Shown: positions 14,027 to 34,100, numbered from the stretch's first letter. The stretch is DNA of 64,000 nucleotides from Azoarcus sp. (GCA_031272995.1 JAISSY010000054.1:2589-66588); one strand, 5' to 3'. A program made the numbers and translations. The notes: generated by a model not told the origin, from the letters alone.

Positions 14027-14425
14027 TTATTCAAGCAGGCGCACCGATTGCCCCTGCTTTTGCAGAATGGCGATGGCCTGTTTATCGAATGAGGCGAAGG
14101 TTTTGCCGCCCAGCATCGTGCCTTCGTAGGCCATAACGCCGTCAGCGAAATCGCCGCCCGCCTCCAGCACGGCAAGTCCGGCTTCCACGGCGGGACGATT
14201 CATCGTCACGCTGCGCACGGCCAACAAATCCCGAATGGTCGCCGCGACCTCCTCTTTCGACAATTTCGCGCCCTGACGGAGCACCCACACCAGTTCGCAC
14301 AGACAGGGCAGGGAAACAGCTATCAACGACGCCTCCCGAAGCAGTCTGGACGCCACCACGGCCTGCGCGGGATCGTCCTGCAACACCGCGCGCGCCAGCA
14401 CATTGGTATCGGCGGTGATCTTCAC
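14027..14425 (-). CDS. vapC: PIN-domain toxin (VapC family)
   Basis: GTG start at 14425 overlaps the antitoxin TGA. Acidic residues in ADTNV, CELVW, GDFADG and SFDK. Confidence 0.9.
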   Translation of the reverse strand: MKITADTNVLARAVLQDDPAQAVVASRLLREASLIAVSLPCLCELVWVLRQGAKLSKEEVAATIRDLLAVRSVTMNRPAVEAGLAVLEAGGDFADGVMAYEGTMLGGKTFASFDKQAIAILQKQGQSVRLLE

Positions 14426-14682
14426 GCTTCGTCCTTGCCGCCCGCCCACCCTGCGGCGGCGATTCGGTTCATTTCCTCGATCGTCAGCGGCTTTTTCAGC
14501 TTGCCCGCGTGCCGCCCGATGAAGTTCTCGATGCTGCCCGCCGGGCGCTCAGCGCGCAGGCGCAACTCGCCACCCGGCAGTTTGTCGAGTTCGATTCGCT
14601 CTCCCGGCTTGATGCCGAGGTATTGCAGCAAATCCCGTTTGAGCGTGACTTGGCCTTTCATGCTTACAGCGAGCGCGGTCAT
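14422..14682 (-). CDS. vapB: AbrB/MazE/SpoVT-family antitoxin (VapB)
   Basis: MTALAVSMKGQVTLKRDLLQYLGIKPGERIEL is the AbrB-fold signature; SD GGAG upstream. Confidence 0.88.
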   Translation of the reverse strand: MTALAVSMKGQVTLKRDLLQYLGIKPGERIELDKLPGGELRLRAERPAGSIENFIGRHAGKLKKPLTIEEMNRIAAAGWAGGKDEA

Positions 14683-14716: not shown

Positions 14717-14744
14717 ATAGTAATGAAATTTTTACTTACCGCAA
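14717..14744 (-). promoter_or_regulatory. Putative sigma-70 promoter of vapBC with an imperfect palindromic operator
   Basis: TTGCGG-N16-TACTAT on the minus strand; imperfect dyad GTAATGAAAT/TTTTACTTAC across the spacer. Confidence 0.55.
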
Positions 14745-14756
14745 GCGCGAATTTCA

Positions 14757-14794
14757 CTGCTTCATTTGCAGCAATCGAGTTGCCAGCGCAGCAG
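14757..14794 (+). promoter_or_regulatory. Candidate tandem upstream activator sites (two YTGC-N7-GCAG dyads, 23 bp apart)
   Basis: CTGCTTCATTTGCAG (14757-14771) and TTGCCAGCGCAGCAG (14780-14794), 65-100 bp upstream of the -24 element. Confidence 0.45.
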
Positions 14795-14856: not shown

Positions 14857-14872
14857 TGGCACATCTCCTGCT
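14857..14872 (+). promoter_or_regulatory. Sigma-54 (-24/-12) promoter
   Basis: TGGCAC-ATCTC-CTGCT, exact GG-N10-GC spacing, about 70 bp upstream of the receptor start. Confidence 0.85.
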
Positions 14873-14943: not shown

Positions 14944-17751
14944 ATGTTCCTCTCGCCCCCATCATCCCTGCGGATGAAGCCGTTGCGAGCCGCCATATTG
15001 GGAAGTCTGTTGCTGGTCGGCGCGCCGGTGGCTGCGCAAGACGGCGAGGTCAGCGTCGAAAGCCTGCAAAAGCAGGTCGAGGACTTGCGGAAAGCGTTGG
15101 AAGAAAGCCAGCGCGAGTTGGCAGCCGAACGGGCGCGCTCGTCCGCAGTTGCGCCCGCCGAGACGCCTCCCGCCGAAGTCCCCGCCGACCCGGCAGCCGC
15201 CGCACAGGAATCCGAATCCGCGCCCACGCCTGAGCCGGTCGCGGAGGATTCCACCGGCGAGCAGAGCCTTGAAGCAGTCGTCATCAAGCGGCGCAAGGTG
15301 CAGCCAATCGAAGAATTGAAGGAGACGCCGAAATCGGTTTCCGTCGTCACCGGAGCAGAACTGGAAAACCTCGGCGCCACCGACGTCACGCAGGTTCTGA
15401 ACCGGATCGGCAACGTCAACTTCAACTACGGCAACCCGCGCACCGGGTCGCTCACCCTGCGCGGCATCACCACCGGCTCCAACGACCAGATCGGCCCTAC
15501 GGTCGGAACCGAAATCGACGGCGTCCCCATCGCCTATACGCCGCTCTCCAACGGCTTTCCGTTCGTCGACATCGACTCGGTCGGGGTTGCGCGCGGCCCG
15601 GTCGGCACGCGTGGCGGCAGGATTTCCAACATTGGCCGGATCACGTTCAAATCCAAAAAGCCTACCTTCACGCCCGAAGCCAATATTTCCGTCACCCTCG
15701 GCGAATGGGACACCCTGAAAACGTCGGCGGTGGTGGGCGGGCCGGTGGTCGACGGACTGCTGGCGTGGCGCGGCACCATCCTGCGCGAACAGGGCGACGG
15801 CCCGTGGGAAACCCAATTCAAGGATCTCGAAGGTCGCGGCAGCTACAAGAACGTCGACCGCACTTTCGGACGCGTCCAGTTGTTGTTTACGCCAAGCGAA
15901 AATTTCAAGGCGAACCTGAGCGTCGAACATCAACCCAAGGGCAGCGAATGGGTGAACGGTCTCAGCCAGCGCCATCCCGAACCGACGACCTACCGCGACG
16001 GCACGCCACGCTCGGCGGCCTCCATCGACACCGCCTACAAGAAATATCAGCGCGACTGGTTCAACAAGGATCCGGCGCTGTGGGACACGACGCGCGACTA
16101 CTACCGCTATCCGGTCTACGTCGACAACAACGGCGCGATCATCACCAGTTCGAAGGGCTGGACGCTGAACGCCGAATTGAAAGTGCCCGGCCACACCATC
16201 GAATCCATCACCAGTTGGCGCTCGCACTGGTTCTCGGCGGCCAACGACGAAGGCACCCCCTACGACGTCACCAAGAGCGGCGGCTACATCACCAGCTACT
16301 CGCAACGCAGTCAGGAATTGCGCCTGACTTCGGACAAGGACGACAAGTTCGAATACGTCGCGGGACTTTTCTTCCTTTCCTCCGACAACGATTCCTTGGG
16401 TGGCCGCACACGTTGGGGCAACGACGCCGGCGCTTATCAGGCCAACAACGCGCAATACGCGGCGCTGAACGCCGACGGCGCCGGTCAGGCCATGCTGCGG
16501 GATTCCCTCAACGGCGCTTACAAATATCCGAGGGCATACGTTAAGAACAAGGAATTTTCGATTTTCGGCGAAACCGACTGGCACATCACCGCGCCGCTGA
16601 CGCTGACCACCGGCGCGCGCGTCTCGTGGGAGAAGCGCCGCACCGATCAGGAAAACGTGCTCGACGACCCCGGCGTCGGCGCCAACTTCTCCAAAGCCTT
16701 CGGCATCACCACCAACACTTCCACCGTGCTCGACACGACGGCGGCGGACGCGTTGGCGCAACAGTATTTCGGCTCGACCTACGCCAGTCTCTCGGCGGCG
16801 CAACAGTCGCAACTGCAACAGGCGGCGGCGGTTCGCAACGGCGCGTTGCAGCAGGGCACGCTATACGCGCGCAAGTCGGCGAAGCCGTGGGAAGGCGAGG
16901 TCTATGCCGGCAACATCGCGCTCACCGACAAGATCAACGAAAACCTGACCGTCTATGGCACGGTGCAATACGGCGAAAAAGGCGGCATCGCCCAGTTGAA
17001 CAGCGCCGGAGAGTCCGCGCCGGTCGACAAGGAACGCACCACCGGACTTGAAATCGGCTTCAGGTCGTCGTTGTTCAACGACGCCCTCACCTTGAACGCC
17101 GACGTGTTCATCAACGAGGTCAAGGATTTCCAGACCACGGTGGCCGAACTCGACCCGGCGGCGACCGCCGCCTATCAGGCCGCCAATCCTGGGCTTCCGG
17201 CCAGCGAAACCCAGCAATACCAGAGTCTGGTCGGCAACCTTCCCAAGGTGCGCATCAAGGGGGTGGAAATCGACGCCCTCTACAAGGGCGTCAAGAATCT
17301 GACCCTGCGGCTGGCGGCTTCCTACAACGACGCGCGTTACGCCGACGACACATATCTCGCGCAACCGAGCGACATCCAGTGGGGAGCGGGAACCGGGCGC
17401 AGCCAGTATTACAACGTCAAGGGCGAAACCCTGAGCAACGCGCCGAAATTCACCGCCATTCTGGGGGCAGATTACAGACGGCCCATCCTGGGCAACTGGG
17501 ACTTCCACGCCGCCGCCAACTACAAGTGGACGAGCGCCTATTACACCTCGAACGGCAGGCCCAAATACAACCGGCAGGACGCCTACGGGCTGCTCGACGT
17601 GGCCTTCGGCATAGGCCGTCGGGACGGCGCTTTCGACGCCAACATCATCATCCGCAACGCTCTCGACGAGGACTATCACGTCGAAGGCTGGAGCAGCTAC
17701 ACGCCGGCGACCCCGCGCTGGGCCGGCATCGTTTTCTCAAGCCACTTCTAA
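14944..17751 (+). CDS. TonB-dependent outer-membrane receptor (~935 aa) with an N-terminal coiled-coil extension
   Basis: SD GGAGA 5 nt before ATG 14944; signal peptide; TonB-box-like EAVVIK; plug (IDGVP...ARGPVGT); beta-barrel periodicity; C-terminal Phe (SSHF). Confidence 0.92.
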   Translation: MFLSPPSSLRMKPLRAAILGSLLLVGAPVAAQDGEVSVESLQKQVEDLRKALEESQRELAAERARSSAVAPAETPPAEVPADPAAAAQESESAPTPEPVAEDSTGEQSLEAVVIKRRKVQPIEELKETPKSVSVVTGAELENLGATDVTQVLNRIGNVNFNYGNPRTGSLTLRGITTGSNDQIGPTVGTEIDGVPIAYTPLSNGFPFVDIDSVGVARGPVGTRGGRISNIGRITFKSKKPTFTPEANISVTLGEWDTLKTSAVVGGPVVDGLLAWRGTILREQGDGPWETQFKDLEGRGSYKNVDRTFGRVQLLFTPSENFKANLSVEHQPKGSEWVNGLSQRHPEPTTYRDGTPRSAASIDTAYKKYQRDWFNKDPALWDTTRDYYRYPVYVDNNGAIITSSKGWTLNAELKVPGHTIESITSWRSHWFSAANDEGTPYDVTKSGGYITSYSQRSQELRLTSDKDDKFEYVAGLFFLSSDNDSLGGRTRWGNDAGAYQANNAQYAALNADGAGQAMLRDSLNGAYKYPRAYVKNKEFSIFGETDWHITAPLTLTTGARVSWEKRRTDQENVLDDPGVGANFSKAFGITTNTSTVLDTTAADALAQQYFGSTYASLSAAQQSQLQQAAAVRNGALQQGTLYARKSAKPWEGEVYAGNIALTDKINENLTVYGTVQYGEKGGIAQLNSAGESAPVDKERTTGLEIGFRSSLFNDALTLNADVFINEVKDFQTTVAELDPAATAAYQAANPGLPASETQQYQSLVGNLPKVRIKGVEIDALYKGVKNLTLRLAASYNDARYADDTYLAQPSDIQWGAGTGRSQYYNVKGETLSNAPKFTAILGADYRRPILGNWDFHAAANYKWTSAYYTSNGRPKYNRQDAYGLLDVAFGIGRRDGAFDANIIIRNALDEDYHVEGWSSYTPATPRWAGIVFSSHF

Positions 17752-17775
17752 CCACGAACAAACCGGAGCTTCTCC

Positions 17776-18213
17776 ATGAACGACAAGATCGTCAAACCCC
17801 TCGCCGCCCTCGTGGCCGCCGCCGCGCTGGCGAGCGCCGCGCCCGCCATCGCCCACCATGCCTTCGCCGCCGAATTCGACGCCAACCAACCCGTCGAATT
17901 GCGCGGCATCGTGACCAAGGCGCGCTGGGTCAATCCGCATAGCTGGCTGTACATCGACGTCAAGGACGCCTCCGGCGAAGTCACCAACTGGGGCTTCGAA
18001 TTCGGCGCGCCAAACACCTTGCAGAATCGCGGCCTGCAAAAAGCCGATCTGAAGGTCGGCACCGAAGTCTTCATCAAGGGCTACCGCTCCAAGAACGGCG
18101 GGCCGTTCGGCTATTCCGTCTTCATCACCCTGCCCGACGGTCGCAGCATCCAGACCGGCGGCGCGCAGGACGCGCCCAAGGACGAACCCGCCCAACCGGG
18201 AGCCGCCAGTTGA
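17776..18213 (+). CDS. DUF6152-type secreted protein
   Basis: Signal peptide ending AIA, then HHAFAAEFD...WVNPHSWLYIDV...WGFEFG; family recognised from memory of these motifs. Confidence 0.75.
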   Translation: MNDKIVKPLAALVAAAALASAAPAIAHHAFAAEFDANQPVELRGIVTKARWVNPHSWLYIDVKDASGEVTNWGFEFGAPNTLQNRGLQKADLKVGTEVFIKGYRSKNGGPFGYSVFITLPDGRSIQTGGAQDAPKDEPAQPGAAS

Positions 18214-19010
18214 ACGCCACCGAACCGCGCCGCCGCTTTCTGGGCGCTTTCGCGGCTCTGGCGCTGTCGACCGGCGTCGTCGCCATGACGGTTCCGGTCG
18301 GAGCCGCCGCGGCGGCGGGCAAGATTCCCCGTCTCGACAACGGCAAGCCCGATTTCTCCGGCATCTGGCAAACGACGAGCGCTGCCGAATACGACCTCGA
18401 ACCCCACATCGGTCGCGTCGACGCGCCGCCGGGGCCGGGAGTCGTGATCGACGGCGACGGCTTCATCCCTTATCTGCCCAAGGCGCTCGAACAAAAACAA
18501 AAGAACTTCGCGGCGCGGCAGAGCGCCGACCCCACCGCCAAAGGCTACACGCAGGGCGTGCCGCGCCAGATATACAGCCTTTATCCGTTCCAGATTCTGC
18601 AACGGGCGCGCGACGTCACCATCGTCCCGCAGTTCGGCTATTCGATTCGCACCATCCACACCAACGGCACCAAACACCCGACCGAGGACAACGATTTCTG
18701 GCTCGGCGATTCGCGCGGACATTGGGAAGGCGACACGCTGGTGGTGGACATCACCGATTTCTACGACGAAACCTGGCTCGACCGCGCCGGCAACTTCCAC
18801 TCCTCCGACCTGCACGTGGTCGAACGCTGGAAGTTTCTCGACGCCAACACCATCGAATACCGGGCGACGCTGGAAGACCCGCAGGTGTACGCGCAGCCAT
18901 GGACGCTGAGCGTGATTCTTCACCGTCACCGCGAAAAGAACTTTCAACTGATCGAGGACTACCGCTACACGCTGCCCTACGACCAGTACTACCCGCCCAA
19001 GAAACCCTGA
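18210..19010 (+). CDS. Uncharacterised periplasmic protein (paralog A), putative Tat substrate
   Basis: TTG start overlaps the upstream TGA. RRRFL Tat-like motif; GKPDFSGIW and GDSRGHWEGDTLVV motifs shared with the next gene. Confidence 0.8.
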   Translation: MNATEPRRRFLGAFAALALSTGVVAMTVPVGAAAAAGKIPRLDNGKPDFSGIWQTTSAAEYDLEPHIGRVDAPPGPGVVIDGDGFIPYLPKALEQKQKNFAARQSADPTAKGYTQGVPRQIYSLYPFQILQRARDVTIVPQFGYSIRTIHTNGTKHPTEDNDFWLGDSRGHWEGDTLVVDITDFYDETWLDRAGNFHSSDLHVVERWKFLDANTIEYRATLEDPQVYAQPWTLSVILHRHREKNFQLIEDYRYTLPYDQYYPPKKP

Positions 19011-19037
19011 GCCATCAGTGAAACGGGATATATCTCC

Positions 19038-20054
19038 ATGAAACGCATTTTTCCGCTTCCCTCTCTGACGCTGGCGCTATTGACCGCGACCGCCGCCGTC
19101 GCCCAAACGCCGCCGCCCGCCGCGCCCGGACAACCGCAAACGCAAGTCCGTCAGGGCGGCATCGGTTTCGAGACGAGCTTCCCGCAAATCGCCGCCGCGA
19201 AATGGACGGGGCCGCGACTCAAGGACGGACAACCGGACGTTTCCGGCCACTGGTCGAACACCATCGCCAATCACAACAATTTCACCGACCCGCAGGGCGG
19301 CATCATTGGCGACCCGACGCCGCGCGCGGTGGCTTTCCGCGCCGCCAATCATCCGCGCGCGGAGCGCGCCCCCAGCCGGGTGAGCGACCCGGCGGACGGT
19401 CAGCCGCCGTTCCAGCCCTGGGCGGCGGCGAAGGTGAAGGAGTTTCAGGAAAACTTCAACAATCCGGTCAAGCCCGAATACACCGAGCCGAACGCCCGTT
19501 GCGCGCCGGGAGGCATCCCGAAATCCTTCTACTGGCACGGTTACGAAATCCGCCAGTATCCGGGCTATGTGCTCATCATGTTCAACAACGGCTATCGCCT
19601 GATTCATCTCGACGGCAAGCCGCATCTGCCGGAGCGGCTGAAGTTGTGGAACGGCGATTCGCGCGGCCATTGGGAAGGCAACACGCTGGTGGTGAGCGCG
19701 CGCAACGTCAACGGCAAGGCGCTGTTCGGTCGCTCCGGCGAGTTCTTCAGCGAAAACGCCAGGGTCGACGAGCGTTTCATCTTCGCCAACGACGGCAAAC
19801 GCTACAACTATGTTGCGGTCATCACCGACCCGACCGTGTTTACGCGCCCCTTCACCGTCACCATTCCGGCGCGGCGCTACACCGAAGCCGACAAATACAA
19901 CGAGTGGCATTACGAAGCCACGCCCGCCAATTACGACGGCAAAGCGCCGCTGCACGAGCGTTACGAGCGCATCTGCCACGAGAACAACGGCGGCTTCGGC
20001 GCGCCGGCAATCACATCGGCGCCAGCCGCCCCACCTGCGGCGACGAAAAACTGA
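19038..20054 (+). CDS. Uncharacterised periplasmic protein (paralog B)
   Basis: Sec-type signal peptide; GQPDVSGHW, RCAPGGIP, GDSRGHWEGNTLVV, ICHENN. Confidence 0.82.
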   Translation: MKRIFPLPSLTLALLTATAAVAQTPPPAAPGQPQTQVRQGGIGFETSFPQIAAAKWTGPRLKDGQPDVSGHWSNTIANHNNFTDPQGGIIGDPTPRAVAFRAANHPRAERAPSRVSDPADGQPPFQPWAAAKVKEFQENFNNPVKPEYTEPNARCAPGGIPKSFYWHGYEIRQYPGYVLIMFNNGYRLIHLDGKPHLPERLKLWNGDSRGHWEGNTLVVSARNVNGKALFGRSGEFFSENARVDERFIFANDGKRYNYVAVITDPTVFTRPFTVTIPARRYTEADKYNEWHYEATPANYDGKAPLHERYERICHENNGGFGAPAITSAPAAPPAATKN

Positions 20055-20102
20055 ACCCCAACGACACCTCCTCTCCCATCACCATCGAAAGGTTTATCTC
20101 CC

Positions 20103-20597
20103 ATGTCCATCCTGCTTGAATTCGCCCAAGACTTGCAGCATTCGGGGCTTGGCACGGCGCTGGCCGAGTCGCGCTACGCGTTTCCGATCATCGAGGGCAC
20201 GCATCTGATCGGGCTTTCCATCTCGGTCGGATTGCTGTTTCTCATCGACCTGCGCCTGATCGGAGCGTTTCTGAAACAGGTGCCGGCGAACACGCTGCTG
20301 CGGCAGTTGTTGCCCATCGTGCTGTGGGGCTTCGCCGTCATCTTCGTCACCGGATTGCTGCTGTTTACCGCCGAGGCGGACACGATCATCGTCAGCCCGG
20401 TCTTCCCGATCAAGCTCCTGTTGCTGTTGCTGGGCGGCCTGAACGCGCTCTATTTCGAGTTCAAGCTCTCGCGCGAGCTGGAGTTCCAGAACAGCACCGC
20501 CGCCGTACTGCCCGCCAAGGTGCGCTACGCCGGCTACGCCTCGCTCATCCTGTGGGTGCTGGTCATCATCGCCGGGCGCATGTTGGCCTATCTCTAA
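20103..20597 (+). CDS. DUF6644-type 4-TM membrane protein (copy 1)
   Basis: EGTHLIG...DLRLIG, four hydrophobic segments, C-terminal LW...AGR. Confidence 0.75.
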   Translation: MSILLEFAQDLQHSGLGTALAESRYAFPIIEGTHLIGLSISVGLLFLIDLRLIGAFLKQVPANTLLRQLLPIVLWGFAVIFVTGLLLFTAEADTIIVSPVFPIKLLLLLLGGLNALYFEFKLSRELEFQNSTAAVLPAKVRYAGYASLILWVLVIIAGRMLAYL

Positions 20598-20615
20598 TAA
20601 TTCGGAGTCATACGC

Positions 20616-21089
20616 ATGTCTACACTCGACGTTTTGACCGCGCTGGCCGCCAGCCCTCTCGGACAGGCCATCGGCCAGTCCAACCACCTCGTGGGCGCGA
20701 CGGCGCAGGTGTTTCACATTCTGGGCTTCGTCGCCCTGCTCGCCTCGGTGGTGTTTATAAACCTGCGCCTGCTCGGACGGGTGTTGCCCAACGTGCCCTT
20801 GCAGGAGGTCGTTCGCCTGCCGGTGAAATTCATCTGGTGGGGATTCGGCTTCGCCAGCGTCAGCGGCCTGCTGATGTTCATCGCGGTGCCGACGCTGTAT
20901 TACGCCAACCCGGCGTTCATCCTCAAGCTGGTGCTGTACGTGCTCGCCATCGTCTTCCAGATCGTCCTCTACCAATACACGCTGCGCCAAAAGAATCCCG
21001 AAAAATCGCTGGTTTTGGCGAGCGTGGCGCTGTCGGTGATTCTGTGGTTCGGCGTCGGGCTGGCGGGTCGGGCGATCGGCTATGTCTAG
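20616..21089 (+). CDS. DUF6644-type 4-TM membrane protein (copy 2)
   Basis: QVFHILG...NLRLLG, FILKL, LW...AGR; same motif layout as copy 1. Confidence 0.75.
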   Translation: MSTLDVLTALAASPLGQAIGQSNHLVGATAQVFHILGFVALLASVVFINLRLLGRVLPNVPLQEVVRLPVKFIWWGFGFASVSGLLMFIAVPTLYYANPAFILKLVLYVLAIVFQIVLYQYTLRQKNPEKSLVLASVALSVILWFGVGLAGRAIGYV

Positions 21090-21678
21090 GATTCCCGCTC
21101 CGCGCCTCGCCGCGCCCACCGCGCTCGCGCTTGCGCTGTCCGCCCTCGTCGTGCTGGCGGCGGCTTGCAGCGACGGCCACGCCTCGCGCACGGCCACGCC
21201 GCCCTTCAAGGTGAGCGCCACGATTCAGGAAATCATGGCCAACATCATCGACCCCGCCGCCGACGAGACCTGGGAATCGGTGAGCGAGGAATGGGACAAA
21301 GACGGCCACCGCGAGCACAAACCCGAAACCGACGAGCAATGGCTCGCGGTGCTCAACCACGCCGTCGCCTTGCAGGAGTCCGCCGATTTGCTGACGATTC
21401 CGGGGCGCGCCGTCGCGCCGCCGGGAAAGAATCTGGAGGATTCCGGCGTCGCCGGCATTCTCGACGCCGCCGGCGTGGAAGCGGCGATCAAAATCGACCC
21501 GGAGGCTTACGCAGCCTTCATCGCCGCCTACCACGAAGCCGCGCATGAACTGGTCGTCGCCGCACAGAACCGGGACGTCGAAAGTTTGAAACTCGGCGGC
21601 GCGCGACTGGACGCGGTTTGCGAAGCCTGCCACGCCCGTTTCTGGTATCCCGATGCGCAAAAAGCTCCGACGCGCTGA
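21082..21678 (+). CDS. Lipoprotein c-type cytochrome, class II (four-helix-bundle) like
   Basis: Lipobox LAAAC; single CEACH near the C-terminus (nt 21619-21633); helical, Ala-rich. Confidence 0.78.
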   Translation: MSRIPAPRLAAPTALALALSALVVLAAACSDGHASRTATPPFKVSATIQEIMANIIDPAADETWESVSEEWDKDGHREHKPETDEQWLAVLNHAVALQESADLLTIPGRAVAPPGKNLEDSGVAGILDAAGVEAAIKIDPEAYAAFIAAYHEAAHELVVAAQNRDVESLKLGGARLDAVCEACHARFWYPDAQKAPTR

Positions 21679-22096
21679 GTTCGCGCTCCTCCTGTTGCTG
21701 CTGCTTCCCGCGCTGGTCGTCGCCGGGGCGGCGAAGAACAACGCCGTCCTGCGTCTGATGAAGGCCAAGGTCATTCCCGCCTCCACCGTCGTGTTCGAAG
21801 CGGCAGCCGAAGCGCCGGCGAACGGCGCCGGCTGGCAGGCGGCGCTGCAAGCAGCTGACGCGCTCGCCGCCGCAGCTGAGGAACTGAAGCCGACGCCGCG
21901 CGGTTTCGCGGCGACGCCATGGCAGAACGACGTCGCCGCTTTCGCCGACGCGGCGCGCGCCACACGTCAGGCCGTCGCCCGCCGCGACGCCGCCGCACTG
22001 GAAGCGTCGAACGGCGCGCTCTACCAAAGCTGCGAAACCTGCCACACCGACTACCCGCCGCGTGCGGTTTCCGCGCGCGTTTCCGCCCGACCCTGA
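21653..22096 (+). CDS. Periplasmic c-type cytochrome, class II like
   Basis: Signal peptide; C-terminal CETCH (nt 22031-22045); paralogous layout to the upstream cytochrome. Confidence 0.72.
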   Translation: MRKKLRRAEFALLLLLLLPALVVAGAAKNNAVLRLMKAKVIPASTVVFEAAAEAPANGAGWQAALQAADALAAAAEELKPTPRGFAATPWQNDVAAFADAARATRQAVARRDAAALEASNGALYQSCETCHTDYPPRAVSARVSARP

Positions 22097-22117
22097 ACTT
22101 CGTTTCGTTTTCATTCC

Positions 22118-22789
22118 ATGAGCTACGCACCCGCTTTCACCACTTCCTACGCCGCCCGCCAGCGCGACCCGCGCCGCCATTTGACCGGCATCGTTCTGGC
22201 GGTGATTTTCCACGTCGCGCTCGGCTATGCGCTGTTGAACGGGCTGGCGCGCGAGGTCGTCAAGGCGATCCGCGACCCGTTGTCGGTGCGGCTGATCGAG
22301 GAAATCAGGCCGTCGCCGCCGCCTCCCCCGCCGCCGCCGCCGAAAAAAATCGCCCGCGTGCAGGCCAAGCCGCGCGCCACGCCGCCGCCGGCATGGGTTC
22401 CGCCGCCGGAAGTTCAGGTCACCGCGCCGACGGTGGAGCCGCCAATCACCGTGGTGCAGCAGGCCGCACCCCCCGAACCCGCGCCTGCGGTGGCCGCGCC
22501 TGCGCCCGCTCCGGTCGCCGCCGCCATCGGCGTCACCTGCCCCAACCACCTGAGCATCCGCAGCAGCGTGGATTACCCGCCGCAAGCCTTGCGCCTGAAC
22601 AAAAGCGGAGAGGTGGTGGCGGAATTCGTCGTCGATACGAAGGGAAAGATCGGCAACGTCCGCATCGCCAAATCCAGCGACCCGATTTTCAACAAAGCCG
22701 TCACCGACGCCGTGCGCCGCTTCAACTGCGTCGGGCAAGGCCGTCCGGTGCGCGTCACCGTGCCTTTCCAGTTCGCGCTGGAAAACTGA
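22118..22789 (+). CDS. tonB: Energy transducer TonB
   Basis: N-terminal TM with SxxxH-type His (AVIFHVA), Pro-rich linker, YPPQA C-terminal domain. Confidence 0.9.
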   Translation: MSYAPAFTTSYAARQRDPRRHLTGIVLAVIFHVALGYALLNGLAREVVKAIRDPLSVRLIEEIRPSPPPPPPPPPKKIARVQAKPRATPPPAWVPPPEVQVTAPTVEPPITVVQQAAPPEPAPAVAAPAPAPVAAAIGVTCPNHLSIRSSVDYPPQALRLNKSGEVVAEFVVDTKGKIGNVRIAKSSDPIFNKAVTDAVRRFNCVGQGRPVRVTVPFQFALEN

Positions 22790-22823
22790 AGGCGCTCATC
22801 TTTTTATTTCCCCGGAGAACGTC

Positions 22824-23579
22824 ATGGCCGACCCTGTCATCGCTACCCATCTCGCCGCCGAAGTCATCGCCAATCCCTACGGGCTGGACGCCCTGTGGGC
22901 GCAAGGCGATTTCGTCGCCAAGGGCACCCTGATCATCCTGCTGCTGCTGTCGGCGGCAAGCTGGTACGTCATCTTCACCAAACTCTACGAACAGGAAAAA
23001 CTGCGCCGTCACGCCCGCGAAGCGCAGCGCAAATTCTGGATCGCCGCCGGCATCCGCGAAGGCGCAGACGCGCTCGATCCGAACGGCGCTTTCCGCTTCA
23101 TCGCCCAATCCGGGCTGAACGCCAAGGAGCGCCACGTCGGCCTGCTCGAACACATCGACCTCAACACCTGGATCGGCCAATCCATCCAGCGCGCGGTCGA
23201 AAACGTGCAGACGCGCTTGCAGGACGGGCTGGCGCTGCTCGCCACCGTCGGCTCCACCGCGCCGTTCATCGGGCTGTTCGGCACCGTCTGGGGCATCTAC
23301 CACGCCCTCACCGCCATCGGCATCGCCGGACAGGCGTCGATCGACAAGGTGGCCGGCCCGGTGGGCGAATCGCTGATCATGACCGCCATCGGTCTGGCAG
23401 TGGCCGTTCCCGCCGTGCTCGGCTACAACTGGCTGGTTCGCCGCAACAAGACCGCCCTCGACGAGGTGCGCGCCTTCGGCGCCGACTTGCACGCGACGCT
23501 GCTGGGCGGCGAAACCGCGCACAGCGCCGCCGCCAGCGTCGGCGTGGCGTCGGCCAAGCTCGCCGTGGCGCGGGGCTGA
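22824..23579 (+). CDS. exbB: ExbB / MotA-TolQ proton channel
   Basis: LATVGSTAPFIGLFGTVWGI and ESLIMTAIGL motifs. Confidence 0.93.
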   Translation: MADPVIATHLAAEVIANPYGLDALWAQGDFVAKGTLIILLLLSAASWYVIFTKLYEQEKLRRHAREAQRKFWIAAGIREGADALDPNGAFRFIAQSGLNAKERHVGLLEHIDLNTWIGQSIQRAVENVQTRLQDGLALLATVGSTAPFIGLFGTVWGIYHALTAIGIAGQASIDKVAGPVGESLIMTAIGLAVAVPAVLGYNWLVRRNKTALDEVRAFGADLHATLLGGETAHSAAASVGVASAKLAVARG

Positions 23580-23581
23580 CC

Positions 23582-24004
23582 ATGGGAATGAACGTCTCGA
23601 CCGGCGGCGACGACGAGGAAGTCATCTCCGCCATCAACACCACGCCGCTGGTGGACGTGATGCTGGTGCTGCTCATCATCTTTCTCATCACCATTCCGGT
23701 GGCGATTCAGGTCGTGCCGGTGCGACTGCCCGAACAGAACAATCTGGCGCTGGAAACCAAACCGGAGAACGTCAACCTGTCGGTGACGCGCGGCGGGCGG
23801 GTGTACTGGAATCAGGAATGGCTCGAAGACGACGCGCTGCTGGCGCGGCTGAAAGAGACCGCGACGCTTCAGCCGCAACCGGAAGTCCACATCCGCGGCG
23901 ACGGCGGCGCGCCATACGAGCACATCGGGCGCGTCGTGCTCGCCTGCCAGCGCGCCGGCATCGCCAAGGTCGGATTCATCACCGAACCGCCGCCACGCGG
24001 CTGA
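23582..24004 (+). CDS. exbD: ExbD/TolR (copy 1)
   Basis: INTTPLVDVMLVLLIIF and IRGD motifs; true start ATG 23582 lies inside the longer ORF-track entry. Confidence 0.92.
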   Translation: MGMNVSTGGDDEEVISAINTTPLVDVMLVLLIIFLITIPVAIQVVPVRLPEQNNLALETKPENVNLSVTRGGRVYWNQEWLEDDALLARLKETATLQPQPEVHIRGDGGAPYEHIGRVVLACQRAGIAKVGFITEPPPRG

Positions 24005-24017
24005 GGAGAAAGACATC

Positions 24018-24446
24018 ATGGCCATGACCGTAGGCTCTCCCGCCGCCGACGCCGCACCGGAAGTGATGGTGGACATCAACACCACGCCCTTGATCGACGT
24101 GATGCTGGTACTGCTCATCATGCTGATCGTCACCATCCCGATCCAGTTGCACGCGGTCAAGCTCGATCTGCCGCAAGGCAACCCGCCCCCGCCGCTGGTG
24201 GAGCCGGAAGTGGTGCGCATCAATATCGAAAGCGACGGAATCGTTTACTGGAACGGCGAAGCCGTCGAGAGCCTCGCCGTCCTCGAACCCCGTCTGCAAG
24301 CCGCCGCCCTGCAACCGACGCCGCCCGAAATCCACGTCCGCCCGGATCGCGCCGTGCTCTACGACACCGTCGCCGCCGTAATGGCGGCGATTCAGCGCAA
24401 CGGTTTGACCAAGGTGGGTTTGGTGGGGGCGGAACAGTTTTTGTGA
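24018..24446 (+). CDS. exbD: ExbD/TolR (copy 2)
   Basis: INTTPLIDVMLVLLIML motif. Confidence 0.92.
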   Translation: MAMTVGSPAADAAPEVMVDINTTPLIDVMLVLLIMLIVTIPIQLHAVKLDLPQGNPPPPLVEPEVVRINIESDGIVYWNGEAVESLAVLEPRLQAAALQPTPPEIHVRPDRAVLYDTVAAVMAAIQRNGLTKVGLVGAEQFL

Positions 24447-26586: not shown

Positions 26587-29163
26587 TCATAGCGATTTGA
26601 GCAGCGCGCTCGCTTCGTTGTGAAGCGGCGAGCCGGCCGGGGCGCGCGAAAGCAGGCTATTCAACTCGCGCTTGGCGTCGTCGCGGCGACCGAGTTGCGC
26701 GTAGCTCTTGGCCAGATTCAGGCGCAGTGCCGGCGCGTCGGGCGCCAGTTTCACCGCCCGCTCCTGATTGGCCAGTCCCGCCTTGGCGTCGCCCTGCGCG
26801 ATCTGAATCGTGCCGAGGGTGTCGAGGATGGCGGGGTTTTCCGGTTCGAGTTTATAGGCGCGTTCGGCAATCGCCAGCGCCTGCGCGTCCTTCAACTGGA
26901 AGCTCACCCAGGCCAGATTGTTGAGCATGGTGGCGTTGTCGGGCAGCAGTTCGTTGATTTTGCGGTAGAGCGTCTGCGCTTCGCCATAACGCTCGGCGGC
27001 AAGCGCGCGTTCGGCGAGATAGGTGCGACCGGCGATGTCTTTCGGTTGCGCCGCCAGCCATTCGTCGGCGAGCTTGCGCGCTTCGTCGCCACGTTTGGCA
27101 TGGGTGAGCGCGGCGTGCAGGCGCACGAACTGTTCGGCGCGGCGCTCCAGTTTGTACGCCTTCTGCAAGCTGGCGATGGCGGCCTTGGCGTCGCCGTTCG
27201 CCTGCTGCGCGGCGGCGAGCAGAGTCAGCGGCGCGGCGGCGCGCGGCGCGAGTCCGGCCAGCTTGGCGAAAGTGCCTGCCGCTTGCTGCGCGTTGCCGGT
27301 GGCGAGTTGCACCTCGCCGAGCAGTTGCAACGCGCGCGGGTCGTCCGGCCAAGCGGCGGCGGTCTGCTGCGCCAGATCGCTCGCTTTCGCCTTGTCGTTC
27401 TGCGCCAGATAGAAGCGCGTCAGCACCAGACTAGGCGTCAGTCGACCGGTTGCGATGCGCAGCGCGTGTTCGAGCACCGGCTGGATTTCGCCGGGCTTGG
27501 CGCCGGTCGCTTGCAGCACGCCCGCATAGGCGATCAAGGCATCGGCGCTCTTGGCGTCGTCGCCGACTAGCCGCTTGAAGCGTTGCCGCGCTTGATCCGG
27601 CTTCTTGTCGGCCAAGTCGAGTTGCGCCAAATCGACGATGGCGGAAAGAAAAGCCGGATCGAGCGCCAGCGCTTTTCCGTAAGCGGCGCGCGCCCCGGCA
27701 CGGTCGCCCTTGAGCGTCAGCAGACGCCCCTTGAGTCCCCAAGTCTGCGGCTCGTCGGGTTTCTTCTTCTCGATTTCGGCGGCGATCTCCAGCGCCTTGT
27801 CGAGTTCGCGGTGGCGCAGGTGAATGGCGATGCGGGCGAGATCGGCCTGAATCGCGTTGGGGTCGAGTTGCGAAGCGGCGTCGAGCACGGCGAGCGCCCC
27901 GTCGACGTCGCCGCTCATCATGCGCGCGATGCCCAACTGCGTTTGCGCCCGCGAGTCGTCCGGCGCGGCGGCGGCGGCGCGTTTGATGAAGTCCGCGGCG
28001 CGCGTCTTGTCGCCGACCGCCATATAAACCTGCCCGGCCAATCCGAGTTGTTCCGGGGTCATTTTGTCGCCAAGCGCCAGCAGCGGTTGCAGCGTGTCGC
28101 GGGCACGGTCGGCTTGTCCGCCGCCCAGCAGCGCGGAGACCATCAACATGCGCGCGGCGTGGTTTTTCGGCGCCGCTTCCAACGCCCGCGACAGGAAGCT
28201 CTGCGCCAGCGCGAATTCTTTCTTCTGCAACAGCACCAGACCGGCAAGCATCTGCGCGGGCAGGAAGTTCTGCGCTTTCGAGGCCGCGTCCACCGCCTTG
28301 GCGCGCGCATCGTCGAGGCGACCGTCGTGGAAGGCGAGATACGCCTCGACGTAACCCACCGCCGGATGCTCCGGCGCCACCGCCTTCATGGCGTCGGCTT
28401 CCTGACGCACGCCGTCGATGTCCTTGAGCGCTTGCAACACCATCACCCGCGACAAATGAGTGTTGATCGAGTTCGGGTCGGCCTTGACCGCGTCCGCCAG
28501 CGCTTTGGCGGCGGCTTCTTTGTCGCCGCTCGCCAACCGGGCGTCGGCGAGCAGACGCTGCGCGGCGGCATCGTCCGGCGCGCGCGTCGCGATTTTCTCG
28601 GCGTCGGCGAGCGCGCCCGCCGTGTCGTTGCGATTGAGCTTGATGCGCGCCAGCCCTATCCCCGCCGCGTTGCTGTCGGGGTCGACCGCCAACGCCGCCG
28701 TGTAGGCGCGACGGGCGTCGTCGAACTTCCTGCGCACCAGAAAGGCGTCGCCACGGGTCACCTGCACCTTCGCTTTGGCGGCGGCGGAATCGAGATTCAC
28801 GTCGGCGAAATCGCGCAGCACGCGGTCGTACTCGCCCTCGCGCAACAGCGACTGCATGAGCAACGGCACCACTTCGTCTTTGGCGTAGCCCATCTCGAAG
28901 GCGCGGCGCAATTCCTTCGACGCGCCGGAGAAGTTTTCCTGCCGGAAGTAAACCGAGCCGAGCAGGAAGCGCCCTTCGGCCAACTGGTTGTTCTCTTGCA
29001 GGGCGTTCTTCAACTGGATGGCGGCGGCGTTGAGATCGCGCTTTTCGATGAAGCCCTTGGCGGAGGCGATCATGTCCTCCGGACTGTTGGAACAGGCCAC
29101 CACCAGCGTGGCGAACAGCGCGATGGCGGCTCTGCCGGCGCGGCGAACGTCGAAAGCCATCAT
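26587..29163 (-). CDS. prsT: PEP-CTERM system TPR-repeat lipoprotein
   Basis: Lipobox LVVAC, AAIQLKNALQ, many TPRs, directly downstream of prsR. Confidence 0.85.
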   Translation of the reverse strand: MMAFDVRRAGRAAIALFATLVVACSNSPEDMIASAKGFIEKRDLNAAAIQLKNALQENNQLAEGRFLLGSVYFRQENFSGASKELRRAFEMGYAKDEVVPLLMQSLLREGEYDRVLRDFADVNLDSAAAKAKVQVTRGDAFLVRRKFDDARRAYTAALAVDPDSNAAGIGLARIKLNRNDTAGALADAEKIATRAPDDAAAQRLLADARLASGDKEAAAKALADAVKADPNSINTHLSRVMVLQALKDIDGVRQEADAMKAVAPEHPAVGYVEAYLAFHDGRLDDARAKAVDAASKAQNFLPAQMLAGLVLLQKKEFALAQSFLSRALEAAPKNHAARMLMVSALLGGGQADRARDTLQPLLALGDKMTPEQLGLAGQVYMAVGDKTRAADFIKRAAAAAPDDSRAQTQLGIARMMSGDVDGALAVLDAASQLDPNAIQADLARIAIHLRHRELDKALEIAAEIEKKKPDEPQTWGLKGRLLTLKGDRAGARAAYGKALALDPAFLSAIVDLAQLDLADKKPDQARQRFKRLVGDDAKSADALIAYAGVLQATGAKPGEIQPVLEHALRIATGRLTPSLVLTRFYLAQNDKAKASDLAQQTAAAWPDDPRALQLLGEVQLATGNAQQAAGTFAKLAGLAPRAAAPLTLLAAAQQANGDAKAAIASLQKAYKLERRAEQFVRLHAALTHAKRGDEARKLADEWLAAQPKDIAGRTYLAERALAAERYGEAQTLYRKINELLPDNATMLNNLAWVSFQLKDAQALAIAERAYKLEPENPAILDTLGTIQIAQGDAKAGLANQERAVKLAPDAPALRLNLAKSYAQLGRRDDAKRELNSLLSRAPAGSPLHNEASALLKSL

Positions 29164-29164
29164 C

Positions 29165-30526
29165 TCAGTTCTCCTTTTTCAGCCCGAAGCGGTTCATCAA
29201 ATCGTAGAGCGACGGACGACTGACGCCGAGAATTTCCGCCGCGCGCGCGATGTTGCCGTTGGTGCGCGCCAGCACCCGCACTACCGCCTGCCGTTCGGCG
29301 GCTTCGCGTACTTGCCGCAGGTTGAGGTGTTCGAGCGGCTCCTCGCCGGTGGCGCCAAGTCCGAGGTCGTCGGCAGTGATGCGGTTGCCGTCGGCCATGA
29401 TGACGGCGCGCTTCAAGCAGTTTTCCAGTTCGCGCACGTTGCCTGGCCATTGGTAGGTTTCGATGGCGGCGATGGCGTCCTCGCCCAGTTGCAGCGAACT
29501 GCGCCCGTTTTCCTGCGCGAAACGCTGCACGAAGTGATGCGCGAGCAGCACCGCGTCGCCCTCGCGCTCGCGCAGCGGCGGAATCGTCACCACGATTTCG
29601 GCGAGCCGGTAATACAAATCCTCGCGGAACTGGCCGGACTGGATGCGCGCCTTGAGATCCTGATGGGTGGCGCAGACGACGCGCACGTCGACCGGAATCT
29701 CCTGCCGACCGCCGAGGCGTTCGATGACGCGCTCCTGCAGGAAGCGCAAGAGCTTCGCCTGCAGCGACATCGGCAAATCGCCGATTTCGTCGAGAAAGAG
29801 CGTGCCCTTGTGCGCGGTTTCGATCTTGCCGGGCGTCTGGCGGCTGGCGCCGGTGAAAGCGCCCTTCTCGTAACCGAACAGTTCGCTTTCGAGCAGGTTT
29901 TCCGGAATCGCGGCGCAGTTGATGGCGACGAAGCGTTCGCGCGCGCGCGGCGACAGGTTGTGCAAGCCGCGCGCCAGCACTTCCTTGCCGGTGCCGCTGT
30001 CGCCGAAAAGCGCCACCGTCGCCGAGGCGGAGGCGACCTTCTCGATGGTGCGGCAGATTTTCAACATGCCGGCGTCGCGGGTGAGCAGCCCGACCACCGA
30101 ACCGGCCTGCGTCTGTTGCAGACGGCGGTTCTCGGCTTGCAGGTTGTAGAGACGGAAGGCGCGCTCGATGGTGAGCGTGAGCAACTCCGGCTCGAACGGC
30201 TTGCTGAAGAAGTCGTAGGCGCCCAGTCCGACGGCGCGTACGGCGTTTTCGCGGTCGTGTTGGCCGGTGAGCACGATGATCTTGGTGTCGGGCGCGAGCG
30301 CGAGAATTTCCGAGAGCAGCGCGAAGCCCTCGCCAACGTCGTCGGGCGTCGGCGGCAGTCCCAGATCCATCGTCACCACCGCCGGCTCGAAGCGCCGCAT
30401 CTGGTTGATGGCGCTTTCACGGTCGTCCGCCACCACGGTTTCAAAGCCGTCGAAGGCCCAACGCATCTGCTTTTGCAGCGCGGGGTCGTCCTCGACGATC
30501 AATAGGGTTCGTTGTTTTTCACTCAT
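29165..30526 (-). CDS. prsR: PEP-CTERM-box response regulator (REC + sigma-54 AAA+ + HTH)
   Basis: LLIVEDD, MDLGLPP, GDSGTGKE, GAFTGA, WPGNVRELEN; start at MSEKQR. Confidence 0.92.
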   Translation of the reverse strand: MSEKQRTLLIVEDDPALQKQMRWAFDGFETVVADDRESAINQMRRFEPAVVTMDLGLPPTPDDVGEGFALLSEILALAPDTKIIVLTGQHDRENAVRAVGLGAYDFFSKPFEPELLTLTIERAFRLYNLQAENRRLQQTQAGSVVGLLTRDAGMLKICRTIEKVASASATVALFGDSGTGKEVLARGLHNLSPRARERFVAINCAAIPENLLESELFGYEKGAFTGASRQTPGKIETAHKGTLFLDEIGDLPMSLQAKLLRFLQERVIERLGGRQEIPVDVRVVCATHQDLKARIQSGQFREDLYYRLAEIVVTIPPLREREGDAVLLAHHFVQRFAQENGRSSLQLGEDAIAAIETYQWPGNVRELENCLKRAVIMADGNRITADDLGLGATGEEPLEHLNLRQVREAAERQAVVRVLARTNGNIARAAEILGVSRPSLYDLMNRFGLKKEN

Positions 30527-32666: not shown

Positions 32667-34051
32667 TGCGCCCCCTCGCCCATCAGCACCACACGCACCG
32701 TCTCCAGCAACACGAGAGTGTCGAGCACCAAGGTATGGTTCTTCACGTAGTACAAATCGTATTGCAGCTTCTGCACCGCGTCGTCGCGCGAAGCGCCGTA
32801 CTGGTAGCGCACCTGCGCCCAACCGGTCAGCCCCGGCTTGACGCAATGGCGAATGCCGTAAAACGGAATCTCGCGCGCCAGTTGGTCGACGAAAAACGGC
32901 CGCTCCGGACGCGGCCCGACCAGACTCATGTCGCCCAACAGCACGTTGACGAGTTGCGGCAACTCGTCGATGCGCAGCCGCCGGATGAAGCGGCCGACGC
33001 GGGTGATACGCGCGTCGTTGCTCTCCGCCCAACGCGGCGTGCCGTCCTTCTCGGCATCCTGCTTCATGCTGCGGAACTTCACCACCCGGAACACGCGTCC
33101 GCCCTGTCCGACGCGCTCCTGTCGGTAGAACACCGGCCCGCCGTCCTCGAACAGAATCATGAACGCGACGACTATGTTGAGCGGCAAAGTGACCACGAAC
33201 AGCCCGGCAGCCACCACCAGATCGAACAGGCGCTTGAAGAACACCCGTTGCAGCGGCTGCTGGAAGCCGTCGCCGTAAATCAGCCAACTGGCGCGCAGGG
33301 AATCGAGCCGCACCTGCCGGCGCACGCGCTCGTAGAAAGTGGACAAATCGAAAATGTGGATGCCGTCGAGCTTGCAGTTGAGCAGTTCGCGCAACGGCAG
33401 CGCGCCGCCGCGCCGCTCGCGCATGGCGACGATGATTTCATCGATGCGCAATCGGCTCGCCACTTCGGAAAGCGAACCGTCGGCGACGATTTTCTCCGCG
33501 TCGACCTTCGGCTCGCCGTCGCTCGCCGCCGGATAGAAAGCCTGCACCTCGACGTTGCCCTGCTCCGGATGCAGCAGGATGCGCTGCACTTCCAGCGCAT
33601 CCTCGCCGGTGCCGACCACGAGAATGCGCGGCGCGAACAGGGACGACGCCTGCTTGCGGTTGATGAGCACGCGCAGCGACAGAATCACCGCCGTCATCAC
33701 CAGCACCTCGGCCTGCATCCACAGCGAGGCGAAGCCGAACCACGGCAGCATCAGCATGGCGAAATAGGCGGCGGGCAGGCAGAAGATGAACGCCAGCACC
33801 AGCCGGGCGAGCGCGGTGTGCGGGCTGTCCTCGTCCACCGGGCGGTAGAGTCCGAGGGCGAAATTCACCACCACCACCGTCACCGCGAAACCGAAAGTCG
33901 ACGGCAGCATCGCGTGCCAATCCACTTCCAGTTCCGGCCCGCGAGCGCGAAACGCCGCCAGCGCCACCACGGCCACCACGAACAGCAGCAGGTCGAGACA
34001 CAACCGCTGCACCACGTGCATGGGGAAGTAGTGGCTAAAAACTTTCAGCAT
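32663..34051 (-). CDS. Polyprenyl glycosylphosphotransferase, PEP-CTERM-associated (TIGR03013-like)
   Basis: KRLFD, FRSM, RIDELPQL, GPRPERP, KPGLTGWAQV, YDLYY; start at MLKVFSHYF. Confidence 0.92.
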   Translation of the reverse strand: MLKVFSHYFPMHVVQRLCLDLLLFVVAVVALAAFRARGPELEVDWHAMLPSTFGFAVTVVVVNFALGLYRPVDEDSPHTALARLVLAFIFCLPAAYFAMLMLPWFGFASLWMQAEVLVMTAVILSLRVLINRKQASSLFAPRILVVGTGEDALEVQRILLHPEQGNVEVQAFYPAASDGEPKVDAEKIVADGSLSEVASRLRIDEIIVAMRERRGGALPLRELLNCKLDGIHIFDLSTFYERVRRQVRLDSLRASWLIYGDGFQQPLQRVFFKRLFDLVVAAGLFVVTLPLNIVVAFMILFEDGGPVFYRQERVGQGGRVFRVVKFRSMKQDAEKDGTPRWAESNDARITRVGRFIRRLRIDELPQLVNVLLGDMSLVGPRPERPFFVDQLAREIPFYGIRHCVKPGLTGWAQVRYQYGASRDDAVQKLQYDLYYVKNHTLVLDTLVLLETVRVVLMGEGAH

Positions 34052-34100
34052 GGCCTTATTGGAACCATTTCCTGCATCCGGGCGTGAAACGGCAGATATT

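Follow-up and report, generated by a model that had tools for sequence, protein, structure and literature searches.

The 64,000-nucleotide stretch of Azoarcus sp. DNA analysed here (GCA_031272995.1 JAISSY010000054.1:2589-66588, hereafter 'the window') carries a 12-gene plus-strand operon that encodes a TonB-dependent receptor, a DUF6152 protein, two paralogous proteins (A and B), two DUF6644 proteins, two cytochromes, TonB, ExbB and two ExbD proteins, as well as the gene of an SfnR-like activator of sigma-54-dependent transcription (Table 1). The products of the first ten operon genes are extremely poor in methionine and cysteine, as had been claimed in a preliminary description of the sequence, and it is this depletion and its probable meaning that we report on here. 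The gene labels of that description agree with the Pfam assignments of the operon proteins. The Ton module is complete, with the Plug and barrel, TonB C-terminal, ExbB and ExbD domains all exceeding Pfam gathering scores; neither the activator nor any of the operon proteins has a specific family in NCBIfam. The closest matches of the receptor and the activator come from Azoarcus, Thauera and other Rhodocyclales, and the window sequence itself was matched in DNA runs only (termite gut metagenome).

Table 1. Features of the window: the operon with its promoter motif and putative activator, followed by the remaining features.
Feature	Coordinates	Strand	Remarks
Sigma-54 enhancer-binding protein, SfnR-like, 369 aa	12785..13894	-	Pfam Sigma54_activat 2.9e-66, AAA_lid_14, HTH_8
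Sigma-54 -24/-12 promoter motif TGGCAC-N5-CTGC	14857..14871	+	87 nt before ATG 14944, 117 nt before ATG 14974
TonB-dependent receptor	14944..17751	+	Pfam Plug, TonB_dep_Rec_b-barrel; mature ~903 aa
DUF6152 periplasmic protein	17776..18213	+	Pfam PF19649 4.6e-32; mature ~119 aa
Paralog A, unnamed family, Tat-like signal peptide	18210..19010	+	Pfam: none; 120 homologues at 66-80% identity
Paralog B	19038..20054	+	32-33% identity with paralog A (alignments)
DUF6644 inner-membrane protein 1	20103..20597	+	Pfam PF20349 8.9e-10
DUF6644 inner-membrane protein 2	20616..21089	+	Pfam PF20349 1.4e-09
Lipoprotein cytochrome, class II (c'-like)	21082..21678	+	Pfam Cytochrom_C_2 3.7e-05, slightly under gathering score
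Second c'-like cytochrome	21653..22096	+	Pfam Cytochrom_C_2 6.9e-04, under gathering score
TonB	22118..22789	+	Pfam TonB_C 4e-15
ExbB	22824..23579	+	Pfam MotA_ExbB 1e-30
ExbD1	23582..24004	+	Pfam ExbD 9.3e-27
ExbD2	24018..24446	+	Pfam ExbD 1.2e-26
PIN/VapC toxin gene	14027-14449	-	between activator and operon
Small antitoxin-like open reading frame	14422-14670	-	no Pfam match; pairs with PIN/VapC gene
TPR lipoprotein (PEP-CTERM-type set)	26587-29163	-	
Response-regulator sigma-54 activator	29165-30610	-	PEP-CTERM-box regulator model, sub-cut-off match
Large membrane histidine kinase (PEP-CTERM-type set)	30519 to ~32600	-	
Sugar transferase (PEP-CTERM-type set)	32663 to ~34100	-	

The receptor gene has two candidate starts, ATG 14944, with a Shine-Dalgarno sequence ahead of it, and the alternative ATG 14974. 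Its product carries, ahead of the plug, an extension of ~95 aa (window 14974-15290, plus strand) made up of a coiled coil and then a Pro/Ala/Glu-rich linker, which is not a FecA-type signalling domain. The receptor's only sequence matches in the PDB are the plug domains of siderophore-type receptors (FepA, FhuA, FyuA, CirA); one of its homologues is wrongly named 'Lpp' in the source annotation. The mature DUF6152 protein starts with the stretch HHAF(S/A)AEFD, here HHAFAAEFD (window 17854-17880, plus strand), invariant in an alignment with homologues from two of the compared loci, and a second invariant stretch, NPHSW, lies C-terminal to it: the N-terminal His-His together with NPHSW suggests a metal or ligand site that would use the free N-terminus. 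Predicted without an alignment, the DUF6152 structure is OB-fold-like but of low confidence (predicted local distance difference test score, pLDDT, of 69; Foldseek E >0.01), and the AF2 model of paralog A (pLDDT 77) weakly resembles a calycin/FABP-like beta-barrel, its best Foldseek match being CRBP/FABP at E 1e-3. A sequence search of the PDB with DUF6152, paralog A and paralog B yielded no match, and the fold searches gave only these weak matches for paralog A and DUF6152, neither of which indicates a function. The two conserved cysteines of paralog B probably form a disulfide. In the two cytochromes the heme-attachment motifs CEACH and CETCH lie close to the C-termini, and the Cytochrom_C_2 scores are 25.1 and 21.0 against a cut-off of 26.5.

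With start codons excluded, the first ten operon genes (14944-23579) encode 8 Met and 9 Cys in 2804 residues, or 0.61%, versus 2.6% (Met 1.75%, Cys 0.85%) in the 27 high-confidence genes elsewhere in the window from which we derived the expectation: 72.7 sulfur residues would be expected and 17 are observed (binomial P = 2.5e-15). After its signal peptide the receptor has one Met (aa 662 of the long open reading frame) and no Cys, and the depletion is significant for this 924-aa protein alone (P = 7e-10). Mature DUF6152 contains neither Met nor Cys, and the same is true of mature paralog A, whose sole Met lies in the Tat-type signal peptide; ExbB and each of the DUF6644 proteins have one internal Met and no Cys (0.41% over the aligned region in the case of ExbB). 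The sulfur residues of the lipoprotein cytochrome are the CEACH cysteines, the lipobox Cys29 and M52 in the N-terminal helix, and those of the second cytochrome are the CETCH cysteines and M36. GyrA, for comparison, has 30 Met and 4 Cys. Every count given for these proteins in the preliminary description was reproduced, and in the cytochromes, too, no sulfur residues other than the CxxCH cysteines, the lipobox Cys and one Met each were found; absent from its tally were paralog B (one internal Met, two conserved Cys) and TonB (no internal Met, two Cys). The nine Cys comprise four that attach heme, one in the lipobox, the conserved pair of paralog B and two in TonB, and at least one of the eight Met, that of paralog A, falls within a signal peptide: the majority of the 17 sulfur residues is accounted for by signal peptides, CxxCH heme sites, the lipobox and the conserved Cys pair. 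Since the small genes taken singly reach no more than marginal significance (P 0.01-0.09), and since the window also encodes two unrelated small envelope proteins that lack Met and Cys altogether (LysM-BON, 152 aa; YfgM-like, 214 aa), what carries the signal is the succession of genes together with the 924-aa receptor.

The comparisons across loci that follow are based on counts over aligned regions and on annotated gene calls. For ExbB, a search of 1.84 billion representative proteins returned 90 full-length relatives among the top 150 (40-76% identity). Their Met+Cys content has its median at 2.47% and its 5th percentile at 0.90%, and none of the 90 lies lower than the window ExbB and the representative of its own cluster (0.39%). 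The receptor family behaves differently from TonB receptors at large: among its 119 homologues, which range down to 36% identity, the median is 0.34% and the highest value 1.29%, versus a median of 1.79% (individual values 1.6-2.4%) for 13 unrelated TonB receptors from retrieved loci of other genomes and from E. coli (Mann-Whitney P = 4e-9). A Methylomonas locus has both kinds side by side, a family receptor with 3 Met next to two other receptors with 11 and 12 Met. Thus neither the ExbB homologues nor the unrelated TonB receptors compared are generally poor in Met and Cys; the preliminary description had named equal poverty of other receptors and ExbB proteins of this genome, or of homologues from iron-regulated loci, as speaking against its claim. 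In E. coli, the Met+Cys content is 2.88% for ExbB, 5.7% for ExbD, 1.74% for FepA and 2.01% for FhuA, and for the sulfate-starvation proteins it is 0 for TauA and SsuE, 0.35% for TauD, 0.94% for SsuA, 1.05% for SsuD and 1.19% for CysP; the magnitude of the depletion in the operon equals that of the latter group.

The 120 homologues of paralog A have a pooled Met content of 0.04%, and the cytoplasmic genes that flank homologous clusters retain 2-4% Met+Cys. Clusters are depleted over the range of locus G+C from 43% (Cellvibrio) through 51% (Methylomonas) to 64% or more, so that a G+C effect on the Met codon could be rejected: depletion in Cellvibrio and Methylomonas is not an effect of codon composition. 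DUF6152, matched by over 575 stretches of the species-genome collection, forms with the two paralogs a module that is common in Proteobacteria and Acidobacteriota. Over aligned regions, the Met content is 0.3-0.8% in proteobacterial homologues (DUF6644, 1.5-1.7%) and 1.9-2.7% in acidobacterial ones (DUF6644, 3.2-3.5%), and Met shows the largest proportional difference between the two groups of all amino acids. The alignment for Met substitutions proposed in the preliminary description bears this out, in that conserved acidobacterial Met columns (e.g. 48/59 sequences) are occupied by Leu, Val, Thr or Tyr in Proteobacteria. As the acidobacterial homologues have normal Met, fold constraint was rejected as the cause. 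In Acidobacteriota, as seen in three Bryobacterales loci, the DUF6152 module is not sulfur-poor; no receptor of the sulfur-poor family was detected adjoining it in those three loci, and in Bryobacterales the gene after it encodes a luciferase-like monooxygenase of 421-430 aa with weak similarity to SsuD (E ~1e-7).

We then consider how the operon may be controlled. The activator has the GAFTGA loop (residues 99-104 in the alignment) and a C-terminal Fis-type helix-turn-helix, and it has no N-terminal receiver or sensor domain, the AAA+ domain beginning at residue 39 of 369; its 120 homologues are all ~335-420 aa in length. Over its full length (~346-352 aa) it is 58% and 56% identical to two P. 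aeruginosa regulators whose genes flank msuE, msuD and msuC; these regulators have a Met+Cys content of 1.1-1.4%, as compared with 1.36% in the window activator. The next-best activators from a pattern-seeded scan of 185,579 species genomes reach 48% identity at most, and a Thauera homologue with 63% identity is called SfnR by its source. Judged by these similarities, the window activator belongs to the SfnR group. The operon promoter motif is near the sigma-54 consensus, and motifs of the same class lie directly 5' of cluster genes at 12 homologous loci from about a dozen other genera; by an estimate from pattern degeneracy, sigma-54 motifs at homologous loci occur at ~8x chance expectation. 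A second sigma-54-like motif, TGGCAA-N5-TTGC (14771-14785, minus strand), faces the PIN/antitoxin pair and forms an imperfect inverted repeat with the operon promoter motif. An inverted repeat is also present at 14719-14761. Fur/iron regulation was rejected, as no Fur box was found upstream of the operon (the best match to the 19-mer consensus is 10/19, which is chance level). An Rfam search of the window returned tRNA-Leu alone and no SAM or other sulfur riboswitch. The putative link between activator and operon in the window rests on their proximity, the promoter type and conservation in other genomes.

The preliminary description had drawn its sulfur reading in the first place from the regulator, and this agrees both with the sensor-less, msu-like character of the activator and with the company that its relatives keep, namely sbp, ssuD, ssuABC and dszA/dszC-like genes. 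In Thauera humireducens the activator has on one side a Sbp/CysP homologue that scores 314 bits and lacks Met and Cys, and on the other DszC-like and DszA-like monooxygenase genes, these neighbours all being sulfur-poor; in T. butanivorans its neighbours are a receptor without Met and a binding protein that is SsuA-like. The order in Variovorax is family receptor (569 bits, 1 Met), DszA-like, two SsuD-like proteins and two activators; a Xylophilus locus has SsuD, SsuA-like, SsuC, SsuB, two activators and a family receptor. The activator adjoins the DUF6152 cluster in Methylophilus, Methylobacillus, Methylobacter and two other genomes, with a full colinear set in Methylobacillus that runs from the activator through TonB-ExbB-ExbD to the receptor. 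On one metagenome contig, an sbp gene whose product scores 300 bits against CysP and has neither Met nor Cys occurs together with the activator, a peroxiredoxin, cytochrome b, PSCyt2/PSD1, DUF1501, c'-type cytochromes and a receptor that shares 38% identity with that of the window; in three further loci the PSCyt2/PSD1-DUF1501 module shares a locus with the DUF6152 module.

PSCyt2/PSD1 and DUF1501 constitute a second sulfur-poor module, found with related receptors, the activator, peroxiredoxin and cytochrome b; a rhodanese-like neighbour of this module has zero Cys (observed over seven loci; position noted, L092 9117-9623). Low-sulfur GroEL paralogues are encoded in the vicinity of SfnR-like activators, or else of sbp and a family receptor that is itself sulfur-poor (L097 17503-19128, L098 17494-19119, L091 21244-22634): the 541-aa Duganella proteins have no Cys and 1-2 Met, and that of an Azoarcus metagenome-assembled genome lacks both residues over its last 462 aa, with the GGM tail replaced by GGGAAPHGGGDFGGHGF. 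An explanation for such chaperonins other than sulfur economy appears hard to find. Sulfur-poor periplasmic hydrolases, recurrently SGL/arylesterase-like proteins and dienelactone hydrolases with a Tat signal, lie beside the cluster or the activator (L001 5130-7066, L020 8151-9095, L096 19290-20267, L097 20356-21075), a hint that the substrate may be an ester or a lactone. In the window itself, the minus-strand genes at 26587-34100 form a PEP-CTERM/exosortase-type regulatory set (Table 1).

Taken together, the family baselines, the SfnR-type activator and the sulfur-gene neighbours in other genomes support the preliminary description's view that the composition speaks for sulfur starvation. 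We consider it probable that the operon is a sigma-54-dependent TonB uptake system that is controlled by an SfnR-type activator and forms part of the sulfur-starvation response. Sulfur limitation would lead the activator to drive sigma-54 transcription of the operon, the products of which would then be abundant exactly when Cys and Met are scarce; because they would be made in quantity under this scarcity, selection would have removed the sulfur residues that could be dispensed with. Those retained would mostly be functional (heme Cys, lipobox Cys, a probable disulfide) or lost with the signal peptide, and the single Met of each cytochrome may be a heme ligand. As the operon encodes its own low-sulfur TonB and ExbB, the energising complex would also be built cheaply, so that importer, energising complex and periplasmic processing module may all be assembled at very low sulfur cost. 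The depletion would roughly track expected abundance, with the receptor, ExbB, of which a complex contains five copies, and the periplasmic proteins most affected; ExbD, with two copies per complex and Met conserved in its membrane helix, could have escaped it, and the regulator is mildly depleted. As to function, we infer import and periplasmic redox processing of some sulfur source, possibly hydrophobic or organic. The cytochromes, with cytochrome b or DUF6644, suggest periplasmic electron transfer, and the calycin/FABP-like paralog A, the OB-fold-like DUF6152 and the cytochromes allow us to guess, and no more than guess, at a hydrophobic or reduced sulfur compound.

Several observations do not sit easily with this assignment to the sulfur-starvation response. 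Both ExbD proteins, encoded immediately after the end coordinate of the preliminary description, are undepleted, the 140 aa of ExbD1 including 2 internal Met and one Cys (2.2%) and the 142 aa of ExbD2 including 5 internal Met (3.6%), and so are the inner-membrane permeases of the compared sulfur loci. The activator gene is ~1 kb 5' of the operon on the opposite strand, with the PIN/antitoxin pair (14027-14670) intervening. The window holds no sulfur-assimilation gene, the operon proteins offer no direct clue to a sulfur substrate, and the DsbD, AhpC/TSA, HbpS-like, cytochrome b and PepSY_TM neighbours seen elsewhere would also fit oxidant or metal handling. Finally, the name SfnR of the 63% Thauera homologue is source annotation, and the msu-flanking regulators of P. 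aeruginosa are proteins that we take, by gene order and from prior knowledge, to be SfnR2 and SfnR1. The description of these regulators given in PMC8234197 matches this identification.

The main rival to a sulfur-starvation role, owing to the cytochromes and to the peroxiredoxin and DsbD neighbours, is oxidant hardening: Met and Cys would have been removed as the most oxidisable residues from proteins exposed to periplasmic reactive oxygen or chlorine species or to a redox-active metal, and sulfur supply would be irrelevant. The two c'-like cytochromes of the operon, the recurrence of AhpC/TSA, DsbD, HbpS-like and cytochrome b genes beside homologous clusters and the metal site suggested by the invariant His-His N-terminus of mature DUF6152 would all be in keeping with this. 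However, ExbB and DUF6644 are depleted too, despite their location in the inner membrane, and the readily oxidised Trp, Tyr and His are not lost, Tyr and His even being higher in proteobacterial paralog A. Moreover, the same islands carry sbp, ssuD and dszA-like genes as well as the low-sulfur GroEL, which is cytoplasmic. The AhpC neighbours do not separate the two possibilities, because the thiol peroxidase LsfA is itself described as a sulfate-starvation protein in PMC3596284 (citing Quadroni 1999). We regard oxidant hardening as unlikely.

A second alternative, which we judge quite unlikely, is that the proteobacterial cluster lost its sulfur residues a single time, in an ancestor, and has spread from there by descent and horizontal transfer, in which case composition would be uninformative on its present use. 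The depletion common to the whole proteobacterial clade of the cluster, in many genera, and the toxin-antitoxin pair that adjoins the operon here would be in keeping with such a history; but keeping Met near zero down to 36% identity would need continued purifying selection against Met gain, and both the SfnR-like activator and the sigma-54 promoter motif have been kept in the window. The least of the alternatives, that chance or a bias general to secreted and outer-membrane proteins is at work, draws on the usually low Cys content of outer-membrane barrels and on the zero-sulfur LysM-BON and YfgM-like proteins, and it is very improbable: a generic envelope-protein bias was rejected on ExbB and receptor family baselines 4-6 times higher, and with these, the acidobacterial homologues of the same folds with normal Met, the independence from G+C and the pooled P value it is already largely refuted.

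Sulfur sparing in proteins induced by starvation is textbook biology, with the Tau, Ssu, CysP and Sbp proteins of E. coli as examples. Mazel and Marliere reportedly described sulfur-poor isoforms in cyanobacteria in 1989, and Baudouin-Cornu et al. are said to have found in 2001 that assimilation enzymes are depleted in the element they assimilate. 'Low-sulfur-content proteins' of Pseudomonas putida were the subject of Scott et al. 2007 (FEMS Microbiol Lett 267:184), as cited in PMC6687942. The operon proteins resemble the low-sulfur proteins of sulfate starvation in their Met+Cys content of 0-1%, in that the remaining sulfur residues would mostly be functional and in their putative link to a sulfur-responsive regulator family; they differ in making up a complete TonB uptake machine, with its own TonB and ExbB, plus four families without known function, and their induction by sulfur limitation is predicted. 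According to the works cited in PMC8234197 and PMC10932419 (Endoh 2003, 2005; Habe 2007; Kouzuma 2008; Lundgren 2019), SfnR, SfnR1 and SfnR2 of P. putida and P. aeruginosa are CysB-controlled, sigma-54-dependent activators of dimethyl sulfone and methanesulfonate genes. The window activator shares with them the sensor-less architecture (~360-380 aa), 56-58% identity, a sigma-54 motif before the target genes and a low sulfur content (1.1-1.4%), whereas its apparent target is a receptor-cytochrome operon rather than flavin monooxygenase genes. SftP, the TonB-dependent receptor of the Pseudomonas ats/sft sulfate-ester cluster (PMC3596284), is likewise an outer-membrane TonB receptor from a locus that scavenges a sulfur source; by its description, however, that locus has a LysR-type regulator, SftR, and neither cytochromes nor a DUF6152 module. 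With FepA, FhuA, FyuA and CirA the window receptor would share the plug-plus-barrel architecture and dependence on TonB-ExbB-ExbD, unlike them having no Fur box, similarity in the plug only, a sigma-54 promoter and 4-6 times less sulfur. Our literature search gave no match for DUF6152 or DUF6644, and neither a report of a sulfur-regulated receptor of this kind nor an expression study of a homologue was found.

Sulfur sparing being already known, what is new is the assignment, supported by the comparisons above, of a widespread and unstudied uptake system and its families to the sulfur-starvation response. A label read from composition only would place DUF6152, DUF6644 and the two unnamed paralogs in that response, giving these families their first functional lead, and it also takes in a dedicated low-sulfur TonB and ExbB. 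The families concerned are widespread, paralog A having thousands of homologues. The findings further suggest that bacteria may possess sulfur-poor variants of central machinery, the Ton complex and GroEL among them, that serve them during sulfur starvation. More tentatively, and with rather less confidence than we attach to the sulfur-starvation role itself, we propose that the operon represents a hitherto unrecognised sulfur-scavenging pathway that is widespread in beta- and gamma-proteobacteria. In it, an SfnR-controlled, sigma-54-dependent receptor would feed a periplasmic module, composed of the OB-fold-like His-His protein DUF6152 and two calycin-like barrels and wired to c'-type cytochromes and DUF6644, that imports and redox-processes a sulfur source handled by no known system (e.g. 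hydrophobic organosulfur, reduced or elemental sulfur), often within 'low-sulfur islands' that also hold PSCyt2/PSD1-DUF1501, peroxiredoxins and Met-free GroEL paralogues. If such a pathway exists, sulfur-poor composition could be used as a genome-wide tag for members of the sulfur-starvation regulon.

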